Position numbers and translations under genes: made by a program
Shown: in pieces, positions 13,297 through 17,561 of the stretch
Layout of the letters: each line of letters begins with the position of its first letter
Numbering within the stretch: the stretch's first letter is position 1
The notes under the pieces: model-generated
Seen by the model: the letters and a program-made list of their open reading frames with translations, nothing else
Database searches by the model: none
Told to the model about the DNA's origin: nothing
NCBI GenBank assembly: GCA_963695335.1
Contig: OY968764.1
Coordinates: forward strand, 64,001-128,000
Length of the DNA: 64,000 nucleotides
Source of the DNA: an uncultured bacterium
GTDB lineage: Bacteria > Babelota > Babeliae > Babelales > Vermiphilaceae
Direction of reading: 5' to 3'

Positions 13297-14598
13297 ATGA
13301 AAAAAAAACTTTCTTTTATGCGCTCAAAGATATCCTTCAACAGTTTCCGACTTCGCCAAGGCTTCGTCGGACGCGGCAGGACGAGCGCAGGAATAATCGT
13401 CATTTCCATTATAATCATCATCACCATCCTCTGGTACTTATCTTCCCCTCTCTCCTCTTCAAAAACAATAAAAGTCGGCATCCTCCATTCCCTCACTGGC
13501 AACCTGGCCATCAGTGAAAAACCTGTAGCAAACGCAACTCTCCTTGCAATTAAAGAAATTAATCAAAACGGTGGAATTTTAAATAAACAAATTGAACCAA
13601 TTCTTGTTGACTGCAAATCTGATGAACATATTTTTGCACAAGAAGCAGAACGTCTTATCACACAAGAAAACGTGGTTGCACTTTTTGGATGCTGGACATC
13701 TCCAAGCAGAATTGCAGTAAAAGATGTTGTAGAAAAATATAATTCACTTCTTTTTTATCCAGTGCAATTTGAAGGCATTGAAAATTCACAACATATTGTG
13801 TATGCAAGCACAACACCAAATCAACAAATTATTCCTGGTATCACGTGGTGTATGCAGCATCTTGGTAAAAAGTTCTTTCTTGTTGGTTCTGATCTTTTAT
13901 TGCATGAAATAATGAAAGATGTTATTCATGCATATGATGGAACTGTGGTTGGTGAGGCATATTTTGCTCTGAACAATACGCACGTTGACGATATTATAGA
14001 AAAAATCATCAACGCAAAGCCTGATATTATTTTAAATAATATTGAAGGTGAACCGAATATCACATTCTTTAATGCATTACGTGCACAAGGAATTACACCG
14101 GAAAAAATACCTACCATGTCATTTTCAGTATCAGAGCCAGAACTAAAAGTTTTTAAAACAGATTCTATGACCGGTGATTATGCAACATGGAGTTATTTTG
14201 AAAGCATTGATAATCCTGAAAACAAAGCATTTATCAAAAAAGTACAACAAACGTATGGTAATGATCACGGAACAAGCGATGCTATGGAAGCTGCCTATTA
14301 CAGCGTTTATTTATGGAAACAAGCAATAGAAAAAGCACAATCAACTAATACAGATCTTGTTATTCCTGCCCTCAACAACCAAGCATTTGATGCTCCACAA
14401 GGCCTTATTCATATTACAGAAAAATTACTCGGTGCATGGCAATTTTTCCGCGTTGGAAAAATACGATCCGATAAACAGTTTACTATTTTGTGGAGTTCTG
14501 AAAAAGCCATCAGGCCTTTGGCATATCCTCCTACAAGAACAGTGAGTGAGTGGGCGATAGCTCGCGCAAATATAGATAAAAAAGAGAATAAAAAATGA
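13297..14598 (+). CDS. UrtA/AmiC-like urea or short-amide substrate-binding protein
   Basis: IKVGILHSLTG, FGCWTS.SR, LLFYPVQFEG, PNQQIIP motifs. Confidence 0.9.
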   Translation: MKKKLSFMRSKISFNSFRLRQGFVGRGRTSAGIIVISIIIIITILWYLSSPLSSSKTIKVGILHSLTGNLAISEKPVANATLLAIKEINQNGGILNKQIEPILVDCKSDEHIFAQEAERLITQENVVALFGCWTSPSRIAVKDVVEKYNSLLFYPVQFEGIENSQHIVYASTTPNQQIIPGITWCMQHLGKKFFLVGSDLLLHEIMKDVIHAYDGTVVGEAYFALNNTHVDDIIEKIINAKPDIILNNIEGEPNITFFNALRAQGITPEKIPTMSFSVSEPELKVFKTDSMTGDYATWSYFESIDNPENKAFIKKVQQTYGNDHGTSDAMEAAYYSVYLWKQAIEKAQSTNTDLVIPALNNQAFDAPQGLIHITEKLLGAWQFFRVGKIRSDKQFTILWSSEKAIRPLAYPPTRTVSEWAIARANIDKKENKK

Positions 14599-17561
14599 TG
14601 TTAATCAAAAAAACTGTTGGTTACGCAACACCCCTATTTTTTATTGTGGCAATCGGGGCTTTTGGCCTCTATAATTATATCTATTTTTCTAGCATTCCAG
14701 CATACCAAAACAGATTAACTGAAATGGTGCATCAGCGCACTCAAGACATTCATGATTATCTCAACGAACAAGAAAAAAATGCCATAGAACTCGCATCAAA
14801 CTTCACTCCAACTCAAACATTACTCACAACACACAAAGAAAATATGGGATTTAAAAACATATTTTTTATTGATAAAGATGGCATCATTACATTCTCAACA
14901 ACGCAAAAAAATATTATTGGCACCAACGTACATCAACTGACAGATTCATCATTGCGCAAGTCATATGAACGTGCTTCCATGTCTCTCACCAATGATTATT
15001 CAGATTTTGCATACAGCGAACTGCTGCAAGAGCCAGCGCTGTTTATAACCATTCCCATTTTAAAAAATAAAAAATATATTGGTGCACTTGCATATCAACT
15101 GAATCAAGAAAAAATATATATGATAACCAATCAATATATTGGTTTGGGAAAAACAGGTGAAGCGATATTAGCTAAAAAAGAAGACACTCATATTGTATTT
15201 CTTGCACCTTCCCGCAATGATCCTGATTTAGCATTTAAAAAACGAACAATGTCATCAGATAAACCTCTTGCAATTCAAGCAAGCATCACTGGTCATAATG
15301 GATCAGGCATAGCAACAGATTATCGTGATACAAAAATTATTGGTGCATGGAGCTTTATTCCCAAACTTGATTGGGGAATGATTATCAAAATTGATCAAGA
15401 TGAAATCATGCAAACAGCGAACAAAGTGTATAACTTATTCTTGCTACTCATGATTATTTTTATACTGAGCTTACTTGTAAGCATATATGTTTTCTATCCA
15501 CAATTAGATCGCATCATAACAAAGATTAATCACAAAAAGCCGCTCAATAAAATTCCTGCACTGCTCAAACATCCACTCTTTATTTTACTCTTACTTTTTG
15601 CTGGCTTAACCATAAAAAACAGTGTTCAATATAAAAAAAATAGTTTAAACAGCATCGATTCTGCAAAAAAACTGGCAATCAAAAACGTCTCAGAAAATTG
15701 TGACACTATTGAAACAACAGTCAAAAAAATAGCATTCATTGCACAATCAATTGCTGATGATTTGCGCACGCACTATCTTAAACATGATGATATTGATACT
15801 CGTATCAAACGCGATCTTGCAGAAAATAGCATTCTCACCGGTATTGATATTTATTACGAAAAGCAATTGCACTCCACTCATCAAACAGCTGATGCTCAAA
15901 ATATCGTTAAACCTGCGTGGTATGACCACGCAATAAAAAACGGCTCTGTGTGGTTAATTAATCCAGATACAAAAAATGACAAAAAAAGAACAGCAACATA
16001 CGCGCTTGCAATCCACAATAAAGACAATAAACAACAAGGCGTTATTGCCCTCACCTTCTCTCTTAAAAAAATTACCAATCTTGCAGAATATAGCGGAGTT
16101 GGGCAAACAGGGTACGGTATTATCATGAGTGATAATGGTACTTTTATTTTTCACCCTCTTACCAACTTAGTGAACACACAAACTACTCTTTTACAATATG
16201 CACAATCACAAGGTAATGAAGAACTTGCAACAATCGCAAACAAAGTCTTAGATAAAAAACCGGTCATGGCATCATACAGATCAAAAGCAACACAGGAAAC
16301 TATGTGGATCTATACACAACCAATTGCAATCAATAACTGGATCATTGGAACAACTTTTGCAGAAAATGAAATCTGTCTTCCACCACAAACTGCGCGCCAC
16401 GATTATTTCTGGATACTCATGTGGACAACCATAACATTGCTTCTTTTTGGTGCATTGTTGTGGAGATATGCATTCCTTTCACTGTTTTATTATGGAGTAA
16501 TCGCCAATGCAATACTGCTCCTGGCACTCATCAGTTCATGGAATATTATTAAACAAACAACAACAGTTAATAGAGAATCTCGCACAATTATTACTGATCA
16601 ATCAGCTCTTAACAAATTTTTAAATGATCTTAATGAAGAAGCTGCTCGTAAACATGAACCAGCACCTATCAATATTCCGTCCGGAATTCTTTTATATTCA
16701 CTGAGCAACACAGGTCCTGATAATGTCACGATTTCTGGTTATTTATGGAATAAATATAATACAAAAACTGATGCAAACATTATTCGTGGTATGGATCTTC
16801 CACAAGCAACACGCATGATATATGGAACACCAATTTTTTCACAATCAGGCGACACAGAAACATCAACATGGAATATCCAAGGAGTTATGTATCAAGAACA
16901 AAAATATGAAAAATTCCCGTTTGATCAACAACAGTTGCGCATTATGTTTGAACACAAAGATATTGAAAAAAATATCATTCTCACCCCAGATTTAGTTGCA
17001 TATAAAACAATCAGCCCTGAATCAACTCCAGGTTTAAGCAAAGAATTTTCACTTTCTGGCTTTACTATTGAACAAGCATTTTTTGAATATCAAAAAGTTG
17101 AACCAAAAGCTGATTTTGGTCTTAAAGGCTACGGAAAAGTAACTGACAATTATTATCTTGTGTACAATGCAATCATCACGCGTAATTTACTCAATCCATT
17201 CGTGATTTATTTATTACCACTGCTTGTTATTCTCTTTACGCTGTTCACTACACTTTTGGTTATCAAAAGATCAAGCTCTGCGCTTTCTATTTTGGGTGCT
17301 TATTCAGGTCTCTTTTTTGCACTCATTGTATTGCAGCGATCAATGCGTGAGCAATATCCATCCGGCAGCACATTGTATCTGGAATATGCATTCTTTTACA
17401 CCTATATCACTATTATACTGCTCATTCTGCATACCATTTTAATGTACTACTATAACCACTGGGATAAATATCAAAATAGATCACTCTATCTTATGAGAAT
17501 TTTATTCTGGCCATTCCAGTGGATAACATGGCTTATCACAACAATCATTATTTTTTATTAG
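14595..17561 (+). CDS. Double Cache domain / prokaryotic pentameric ligand-gated ion channel fusion
   Basis: Two Cache-like extracellular regions (GLGKTGEA.L; GQTGYG.I....G.FIFHP); FPFD Pro-loop; four C-terminal TM helices, the first with LLP. Confidence 0.75.
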   Translation: MMLIKKTVGYATPLFFIVAIGAFGLYNYIYFSSIPAYQNRLTEMVHQRTQDIHDYLNEQEKNAIELASNFTPTQTLLTTHKENMGFKNIFFIDKDGIITFSTTQKNIIGTNVHQLTDSSLRKSYERASMSLTNDYSDFAYSELLQEPALFITIPILKNKKYIGALAYQLNQEKIYMITNQYIGLGKTGEAILAKKEDTHIVFLAPSRNDPDLAFKKRTMSSDKPLAIQASITGHNGSGIATDYRDTKIIGAWSFIPKLDWGMIIKIDQDEIMQTANKVYNLFLLLMIIFILSLLVSIYVFYPQLDRIITKINHKKPLNKIPALLKHPLFILLLLFAGLTIKNSVQYKKNSLNSIDSAKKLAIKNVSENCDTIETTVKKIAFIAQSIADDLRTHYLKHDDIDTRIKRDLAENSILTGIDIYYEKQLHSTHQTADAQNIVKPAWYDHAIKNGSVWLINPDTKNDKKRTATYALAIHNKDNKQQGVIALTFSLKKITNLAEYSGVGQTGYGIIMSDNGTFIFHPLTNLVNTQTTLLQYAQSQGNEELATIANKVLDKKPVMASYRSKATQETMWIYTQPIAINNWIIGTTFAENEICLPPQTARHDYFWILMWTTITLLLFGALLWRYAFLSLFYYGVIANAILLLALISSWNIIKQTTTVNRESRTIITDQSALNKFLNDLNEEAARKHEPAPINIPSGILLYSLSNTGPDNVTISGYLWNKYNTKTDANIIRGMDLPQATRMIYGTPIFSQSGDTETSTWNIQGVMYQEQKYEKFPFDQQQLRIMFEHKDIEKNIILTPDLVAYKTISPESTPGLSKEFSLSGFTIEQAFFEYQKVEPKADFGLKGYGKVTDNYYLVYNAIITRNLLNPFVIYLLPLLVILFTLFTTLLVIKRSSSALSILGAYSGLFFALIVLQRSMREQYPSGSTLYLEYAFFYTYITIILLILHTILMYYYNHWDKYQNRSLYLMRILFWPFQWITWLITTIIIFY

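Follow-up and report, generated by a model that had tools for sequence, protein, structure and literature searches.

Why should the gene for a UrtA-like binding protein overlap one that appears to encode an ion channel? This question is raised by two adjoining genes of an uncultured bacterium of the Vermiphilaceae (Babelota; Babelales), which lie in a 64,000-nucleotide stretch of contig OY968764.1 (positions 64,001 to 128,000, forward strand; assembly GCA_963695335.1), hereafter the window. The first gene encodes a periplasmic binding protein of 433 amino acids (aa), and the second a 988-aa protein in which two double-Cache (dCache) sensor modules precede a C-terminal core that we assign to the pLGICs (pentameric ligand-gated ion channels). 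An earlier note, made from the letters of this DNA, had proposed that the two products form an ionotropic sensor. Our analysis suggests that the binding protein belongs with the first dCache module of its partner, and that the two proteins probably work together to gate ion flux in response to a small ligand.

The two open reading frames (ORFs) are exactly as the note described them; they overlap as ATGA, and the same 4-nucleotide overlap is found at four related loci (L006, L007, L008 and L009). Hydropathy analysis of the channel protein yields nine hydrophobic segments (aa 7-30, 274-305, 320-341, 604-631, 625-653, 860-894, 894-914, 927-952 and 969-987) in the order that had been claimed: one transmembrane (TM) helix, a dCache module, two TM helices, a second dCache module, two TM helices, a beta-sandwich domain and four TM helices. 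The motifs PINIPSGILLYSL, SGYLW and FPFD are all present. The note had spoken of two Cache domains; both sensor regions are there, and each turns out to be a double-Cache module. The first matches dCache_1 with an E value of 2.6e-24. The second has Pfam matches at aa 419-593, reaches the dCache_1 cut-off in a six-frame search (46.7 bits), and is aligned by the family profile to the whole dCache domains 3li8 and 7w0w; it is the module shared with the single-Cache relatives of about 700 aa. From the helix count, the N-terminus is expected to be cytoplasmic and all three soluble regions to lie outside, the orientation that a pLGIC extracellular domain would require.

Comparison across genomes reveals which part of this protein the binding protein accompanies. 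A binding-protein homologue lies directly upstream of the channel gene at 10 of 14 related loci, namely all ten with the form of about 1000 aa (L004-L012 and L015), and the four single-Cache loci have no adjoining homologue. We also surveyed 201 genomes of the phylum, which are kin to one another, so that the counts are not independent. The channel domain occurs in 61 of them, including all nine of the same genus, and the binding protein in 30. In 26 of these 30, a long channel ORF (909-1132 aa, with one further case, G138, broken by a frameshift) has the binding-protein gene immediately upstream in the same orientation, and 26 of the 28 long-form ORFs have such a neighbor. Of the other long ORFs, one lies at a contig end and is uninformative (G062), and one, of 893 aa, is a single-Cache form with a longer linker, a glycosyltransferase gene upstream and no binding protein (G035). 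None of the 46 short-form, single-Cache channel matches in this sample adjoins a binding-protein gene.

In the remaining four of the 30 genomes, the binding-protein gene overlaps a downstream gene that has the same first dCache start and no channel. Two of these channel-less partners (652 and 661 aa) have the order TM-dCache-2TM-Cache-2TM and match residues 117-520 and 45-514; the other two (357 and 350 aa) consist of TM-dCache-TM only and match residues 38-319 and 14-272. In all 30 genomes that encode the binding protein, the partner gene begins with the first dCache module. These results show that the binding protein co-varies with the first dCache module and not with the channel core. The co-occurrence that the note had anticipated is therefore seen in that the pair is conserved, and it needs revision in what the binding-protein gene tracks.

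The two genomes with the shortest partners carry a stand-alone pLGIC gene elsewhere (405 and 367 aa), directly preceded by genes for separate dCache-TM proteins (loci L025 and L026, Table 1), and in these genomes the binding protein is found at a different place with its dCache-only gene of 350-357 aa. Taken together, the varied partners and split forms argue that the system is modular, and in the split forms the Cache modules apparently act on the channel in trans. At another locus, three tandem binding-protein genes (420, 429 and 423 aa) lie upstream of a single 1016-aa channel gene (L024, G090:C8, 5895-9700, minus strand); the three products may be co-receptors with different ligands.

We predict that the binding protein docks on the first dCache, mainly because every partner gene starts with this module. 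In the mechanism that we propose, five copies of the 988-aa protein would come together, and both dCache modules would surround the extracellular domain of the channel on the periplasmic side. The membrane-anchored binding protein would take up a small urea-like ligand other than urea and, once loaded, would dock on the first dCache as a co-receptor, much as LuxP does on LuxQ. Docking would gate ion flux through the pLGIC core, and, because the channel protein has no cytoplasmic output domain, the signal passed on would be an altered membrane potential or ion content. We think it fairly probable that the pair forms one such sensor. A bolder version of this proposal, which we put forward tentatively and would not bet on, is that this is the first binding-protein-gated pentameric channel: a three-tier relay, from tethered UrtA-derived protein to dCache to pLGIC, acting as the main transmembrane sensor and converting a host-derived urea- or guanidinium-like cue into an electrical or ionic signal. 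If true, such a relay would amount to glutamate-receptor logic built from separate bacterial parts.

The same gene pair could work differently, with the binding protein a true partner that acts on the second dCache or on the pLGIC extracellular domain by handing over or concentrating the ligand, and with the first dCache sensing a ligand of its own. Ligand concentration or hand-over has been proposed for periplasmic binding protein (PBP) and Cache partners by Tasneem et al. (PMC549065). The second Cache, moreover, still has the W-Y motif region that is typical for dCache domains that bind ligands, and it matches such domains best. However, the binding-protein gene accompanies the first dCache even where neither a second Cache nor a channel follows, as in the 357- and 350-aa partners, and it never adjoins the short forms, in which a Cache of the second type is joined to the channel. 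Of the alternatives, this is the one that we take most seriously, and we consider it unlikely.

Docking on the first dCache would gate a current only if the core is a channel, and single-sequence searches gave no sign of one. Pfam and NCBIfam found nothing in the C-terminal 338 residues, Pfam searches at E values up to 10 on the C-terminal 358 and 318 residues returned noise alone, and phmmer against solved chains listed no pLGIC, its sole match being Plasmodium P41 (E 0.27). The Pfam Neur_chan models matched nothing in the same genome (0/14 control genomes matched either) or in four distant relatives. A full-length profile of 39 sequences, compared with solved chains, was dominated by the Cache domains, with one GLIC chimera (5osa) at E 0.28. 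These negative sequence searches were overturned when the domain was excised from the window protein and 13 related loci and aligned: the resulting 14-sequence profile matched GLIC among the solved chains at E 2.5e-9. All 60 chains listed are GLIC entries, and the alignment spans the YPFD loop to M4 (profile positions 109-337 against GLIC 104-314).

Structure prediction gives the same answer. In an AlphaFold2 model of the full-length protein, built from the 39-sequence alignment (predicted local distance difference test score, pLDDT, 77.9), the C-terminal part forms an N-terminal helix, ten strands and four helices. Foldseek matched this model to sTeLIC (TM-score 0.69 over 333 columns), GLIC (0.67-0.68) and GABA-A rho1 (0.61), and its N-terminal parts to dCache domains. 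A model of the domain alone, from 30 sequences, reached pLDDT 82.8 with a predicted TM-score of 0.75; we compared it with 48,161 representative chains using VIA-align, without Foldseek. The top 22 rows are whole pLGIC chains, with Z scores of 18.6-14.0, root-mean-square deviations of 4.3-6.0 and 267-287 residues aligned over model residues 37-338. Among them are GluCl (18.6), GLIC (18.2), RDL (18.1), sTeLIC (17.4), DeCLIC (16.9), ELIC (16.6) and alpha7 (16.5).

The FPFD motif, R863 and P875 align to the corresponding positions of GLIC. Among 218 family members, the loop proline P775 is present in 214, the aspartate D777 that follows it in 197, the pre-M1 arginine R863 in 195 and the M1 proline P875 in 212. 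Judged by profile and model, the core is a genuine, if divergent, pLGIC, bearing out the assignment that the note had made from motifs and helix number; its assembly as a pentamer and its conduction are predicted. We also attempted to read ion selectivity from the GLIC alignment and gave this up, as the register is too uncertain, and we make no claim about it.

A core with this fold could still have ceased to be a gated conductor and become a membrane scaffold or a constitutive pore, leaving the Cache modules and the binding protein with another role such as adhesion or assembly. In support of this, the pore-lining register and selectivity are not confidently readable, and in our reading of the alignment the -2' Glu of GLIC falls on a Ser flanked by Lys/Arg. 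In contrast, the hallmarks of gating (the proline and aspartate of the Pro-loop, the pre-M1 arginine and the M1 proline) are kept over the 218 members, conservation within the protein peaks in the C-terminal domain (identity to L008, 90% versus 73%), and the protein has no alternative output domain. We regard a loss of gated conduction as quite improbable.

What, then, does the binding protein bind? It contains a Peripla_BP_5 domain (aa 58-413, E 3.4e-130, Pfam) and is about 50% identical to annotated urea ATP-binding cassette (ABC) binding proteins, and it scores 395.9 bits with the NCBIfam UrtA model TIGR03407, below the cut-off of 492.75. The nearest solved chains are 8tg1 (E 4.4e-99), the urea-binding 8hic, 7s6f and 7s6e (about 1e-76) and AmiC (4e-44). 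A basic N-terminus precedes its single hydrophobic segment, and no lipobox cysteine is found in the window protein. The orthologues have a comparable lysine-rich N-terminus and a hydrophobic stretch that ends about 8-12 residues before the domain. We predict that this N-terminal segment tethers the binding protein to the membrane.

The urea site of Prochlorococcus marinus UrtA comprises eight strictly conserved residues (W120, S122, Y141, Q144, E146, Y190, N246 and S274), and urea is hydrogen-bonded by Ser122, Gln144, Tyr190 and Asn246, mutants of which lose binding (PMC10392092). Aligned to 8hic, the window protein retains six of the eight (Trp, Ser, Tyr, Gln, Glu and Ser), and two of the four urea-bonding residues are replaced, corresponding to Y190L and N246E. 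In AmiC the Tyr is retained and the Asn position is occupied by Val, so the pocket described here is of a third type. We counted these columns in a 65-row alignment of binding-protein homologues. In 32 rows, including the window protein, position 246 is Glu and position 190 is never Tyr (L/K/R/P/Q/N), so that Glu at 246 is invariant in the clade of the window protein (32/32). Another 13 rows have other non-canonical pairs, including the partners of more divergent channels such as those of L010 and L015, and 20 rows are canonical (Y, F, N, S). In a quick maximum-likelihood tree, the 32 Glu246 rows fall on one side of a branch with a support of 96 in the Shimodaira-Hasegawa-like approximate likelihood-ratio test (SH-aLRT), and together with 12 of the 13 other non-canonical rows they are separated from the canonical rows at an SH-aLRT of 97; the L015 protein is a long-branch outlier.

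By these comparisons the protein is UrtA-derived and, because two urea-bonding residues are replaced, it is not a urea-type equivalog; of the amide/urea-binding UrtA-like protein that the note had described, the ancestry stands and the urea type does not. A small urea-like molecule, and not urea itself, is the likely ligand. Replacement of Tyr by Leu and of Asn by Glu removes a hydrogen-bond donor to the carbonyl oxygen and adds a carboxylate, and on chemical reasoning we would guess that this suits a cationic urea analogue, for example guanidinium. Because its pocket departs from a solved urea site at two residues, the soluble binding protein offers a defined handle on this question: a limited set of urea-like compounds would do for a screen. 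Among UrtA homologues with a canonical pocket, the closest ones (P0164-P0191, about 50% identity, some named from Nitrospirae, Moorea and Desmonostoc) likewise start with basic residues and then a long hydrophobic segment, show no obvious lipoprotein signal there, and might be sensor partners as well.

The home genome is a single contig of 1.37 Mb and is 94% complete. Its only Peripla_BP_5 gene is the one in the window. Two BPD_transp_2 permease genes lie elsewhere. One belongs to a TrpX-type system, which has a binding protein of its own, and the other to a ribose/LsrC-like permease-ATPase pair (L002, G000:C1:1186913), next to which no binding protein is seen within the 3.8 kb read. The UrtB and UrtC models match neither permease, and urtBC-type permeases are found neither beside the pair, as the note had stated, nor elsewhere in the genome. 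With the core assigned to the pLGIC fold and the pair conserved, neither of the two outcomes that the note had named as fatal to its proposal is observed. Urease alpha and CN_hydrolase amidases have no match in this 94%-complete genome. Nor does Response_reg match anything in the genome; HATPase_c has only two matches, in ORFs of 831 and 696 aa, and the channel gene is the only one with dCache_1. On this gene content, sensing is a better reading than transport, and the channel protein may serve the organism as its principal extracytoplasmic sensor. That the binding protein is an orphan component of an ABC importer encoded elsewhere, adjoining the channel gene through co-regulation only, would agree with its identity to urea ABC binding proteins, with its name in database annotation and with the partnerless L002 pair, but this permease is ribose/LsrC-like (E 3.7e-10 at best) with no UrtB/UrtC-type match, the stop/start overlap with the dCache gene is conserved in 30/30 genomes, and the pocket has lost two urea-bonding residues in a genome in which urease and amidase go unmatched, all of which makes this the least probable account.

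Several observations weigh against the single-sensor mechanism and the ligand that we propose for it. The placement of the docking site is a genetic inference, and the relatedness of the sampled genomes means that 26/30 overstates the number of independent events. Residue 200 of the binding protein is variable in its clade (L/K/R/P/Q/N) and may no longer line the pocket, and Glu250 could still bond urea. The L002 pair, with no identified binding protein in those 3.8 kb, gives a transport role some small probability. On the channel side, Neur_chan_LBD and Neur_chan_memb are unmatched in the protein and in every relative tested, which, with profile and fold both pointing to a pLGIC, we attribute to the limited reach of these models; the single-sequence search of solved structures gave no pLGIC; and the transmembrane domain of the full-length model is of moderate confidence (pLDDT about 56-70). 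Finally, the genes at L005/G138 (3629-7733) and L012 (5690-6899) appear as several tblastn pieces with shortened ORFs, and these frameshifts may reflect decay or long-read assembly error.

The family to which the channel protein belongs is large and unnamed. Of 7994 scored candidates, 71 are homologous to the full protein; most have 980-1060 aa, and where named they are annotated as 'cache domain-containing protein [Candidatus Babeliales bacterium]', as 'hypothetical protein' and, in one case, as a histidine kinase. Searched on its own, the C-terminal domain has matches in 1372 representative clusters at E values up to 0.001 and 1139 at up to 1e-10, with protein lengths that cluster near 1000-1060, near 700 and near 330-440 aa. 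The record titles of L004, L006, L007 and L015 name Babeliales, Dependentiae or TM6; among the other relatives are four labeled 'uncultured bacterium' and two 'uncultured Pseudomonadota bacterium', and distant single-Cache forms come from Latescibacterota, Bacteroidales, Cytophagales and Bacteroidetes.

The features of the pair are collected in Table 1. A stretch similar to its promoter-like site (TTGACT..TATAAT) also lies upstream of the orthologous gene in L006 and L008. Between this site and the start of the binding-protein gene is a hairpin-rich dispersed repeat (13100-13290), also present at 52256-52373 (minus strand) and 56178-56290 (plus strand). The repeat has 12 matches in the genome at 72-100% identity, does not occur upstream of the orthologous gene in L006-L008, and looks like a small insertion of the miniature inverted-repeat transposable element or repetitive extragenic palindromic kind. 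We considered a riboswitch in this region and dropped the idea, since Rfam at gathering score gave zero matches across the whole window, with sub-threshold noise at 12850-13350, and the hairpin-rich stretch is the repeat.

The genes around the pair are two with WD40 repeats, two with RNA recognition motifs (RRM) and three ORFs without a Pfam match; as had been claimed, no ABC component, kinase or cyclase is found among them by Pfam. The WD40 genes are tandem paralogues (8110-9936 and 9961-11802, minus strand; 608 and 613 aa), each encoding an N-terminal hydrophobic segment and six WD40 repeats that are near-identical in sequence; they make up a family of eukaryote-like repeat proteins within a small bacterial genome. 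Two genes for RRM_1 RNA-binding proteins with glycine/arginine tails (11965-12306 and 12451-12888, plus strand) lie just upstream of the pair, and an RRM gene occupies the same position at L006-L008. The downstream ORFs without a Pfam match are at 17663-18157 (plus strand, 164 aa), 18294-21182 (minus strand, 962 aa) and 21375-21848 (minus strand, 157 aa), and the 164- and 157-aa products have hydrophobic, signal-like starts.

Table 1. Features of the gene pair in the window, and the split forms at two related loci.
Feature	Position	Strand	Basis
Promoter-like site TTGACT, 18-nucleotide spacer, TATTAT	13031..13060	+	consensus scan alone; function not implied
Gene for UrtA-derived periplasmic binding protein, 433 aa	13297..14598	+	ORF, Peripla_BP_5
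N-terminal hydrophobic segment, aa 26-54, predicted signal-anchor tether	13372..13458	+	hydropathy
Leu200 codon, position of urea-bonding Tyr190 of Prochlorococcus UrtA; 4-residue deletion follows	13894..13896	+	8hic alignment
Glu250 codon, position of urea-bonding Asn246 of UrtA	14044..14046	+	8hic alignment
ATGA stop/start overlap of both genes	14595..14598	+	read from sequence
Gene for dCache-dCache-pLGIC fusion, 988 aa, nine helices	14595..17561	+	ORF, Pfam, hydropathy, model
TM1, aa 7-30	14613..14684	+	hydropathy; helix 2-68 in full-length model
First dCache_1 module, aa 38-264	14706..15386	+	Pfam; Foldseek matches to dCache ligand-binding domains
TM2-TM3 hairpin, aa 274-341	15414..15617	+	hydropathy, model
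Second double-Cache module, aa about 345-595	15627..16379	+	MCP-like_PDC_1, sCache_2, dCache_2 matches (Pfam)
TM4-TM5 hairpin, aa 604-653	16404..16553	+	hydropathy, model
Conserved linker, N-terminal helix and ten-strand beta-sandwich extracellular domain, aa 663-863	16581..17183	+	models, VIA-align, Foldseek
F-P-F-D 'Pro-loop' motif, aa 774-777	16914..16925	+	lines up with the GLIC YPFD
M1-M4 pore domain, aa 866-987, with pre-M1 Arg863 and M1 Pro875	17190..17555	+	model helices 866-889, 896-920, 927-952, 954-987; GLIC M1-M4 alignment
Separate dCache-TM proteins of 450 and 474 aa, directly upstream of a stand-alone pLGIC of 405 aa	L025 4467-8522	-	
Stand-alone dCache-TM protein, 458 aa, directly upstream of stand-alone pLGIC, 367 aa	L026 2735-5225	+	

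How does the pair compare with known systems? By its sequence it is a variant of the Cache-pLGIC fusions and binding-protein operons predicted in 2004. The note had taken Cache-pLGIC fusions as known, correctly, and the idea is older than it implied: Tasneem, Iyer, Jakobsson and Aravind predicted for bacterial pLGICs fusions with type-I PBPs (PBP-I), fusions with MCP-N and Cache, and operons with stand-alone type-II PBPs (PBP-II) or Cache proteins, and proposed chemoreceptor roles (PMC549065). Both there and here, a Cache sensor lies N-terminal to the pLGIC core and a periplasmic binding protein is associated with the channel, and the operons of stand-alone Cache genes with pLGICs are paralleled by our split forms. 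In contrast, PBP-I was fused and PBP-II was the stand-alone partner in those systems, whereas the partner in the window is a stand-alone PBP-I from the UrtA/AmiC family with a predicted membrane anchor; the two dCache modules are each bracketed by TM helices, nine per subunit, and the binding protein tracks the extra dCache.

What appears to be new here is the nine-helix, double-dCache topology, the stand-alone tethered UrtA-derived partner with a changed pocket, and the rule that this partner follows the extra dCache. To our knowledge, none of the Tasneem-predicted architectures has been experimentally characterised, and for prokaryotic pLGICs little is known of what they naturally bind or of their roles in physiology. 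Genetic linkage in this family points to a specific docking domain. In the openly available literature that the search covered, we found no description of this gene pair and, among the matches listed, nothing relevant on Dependentiae with ion channels or Cache domains; the terms 'N-terminal', 'Cache' and 'periplasmic' have 0 occurrences in Jaiteh et al. 2016.

Among bacterial channels, the stand-alone GLIC, sTeLIC and ELIC have the fold of the core described here, and they share with it the YPFD loop, an Arg before M1, a Pro in M1 and a short M3-M4 loop. Identity to them is 12-18%, and unlike them the window protein has 650 extra N-terminal residues with five helices and two sensors, and goes unmatched by the Pfam models. 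DeCLIC (PDB 6v4a) likewise joins a prokaryotic pLGIC to an accessory periplasmic domain and aligns over the core (Z 16.9); its N-terminal domain, however, binds calcium and is built of two lobes, and neither extra transmembrane helices nor a partner protein accompany it. A 2025 paper describes DeCLIC as the sole pLGIC for which a partial characterisation of the N-terminal domain exists (PMC12664993).

On the side of the partner, UrtA (8hic) and AmiC (1pea) have the same type-I fold as the binding protein, which keeps the Trp, Ser, Tyr, Gln, Glu and Ser of the UrtA site. UrtA differs in being encoded with urtBCDE and in having Tyr190 and Asn246. AmiC is an amide sensor, showing that the UrtA/AmiC family can sense rather than transport. 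Solute-binding proteins are known to dock on dCache-like domains in LuxP-LuxQ, HptA-HptS and BasB-BasT (PMC8050422). In these systems, as described there, the binding-protein gene adjoins a receptor gene with a dCache-type periplasmic domain, just as in the window, and BasB is likewise of the Peripla_BP_5/6 kind. The outputs in that 2021 review are kinases, chemoreceptors, c-di-GMP enzymes and Ser/Thr kinases, and the term 'ion channel' has 0 occurrences in its text (PMC8050422); here, the output would be a channel. Should the coupling that we propose prove right, ion channels would be added to the outputs that solute-binding proteins drive. In animals, channels are regulated by clamshell and Cache domains in glutamate receptors and in the alpha2-delta subunits of calcium channels, and the pair would then provide a bacterial model for channel regulation by domains of both kinds.

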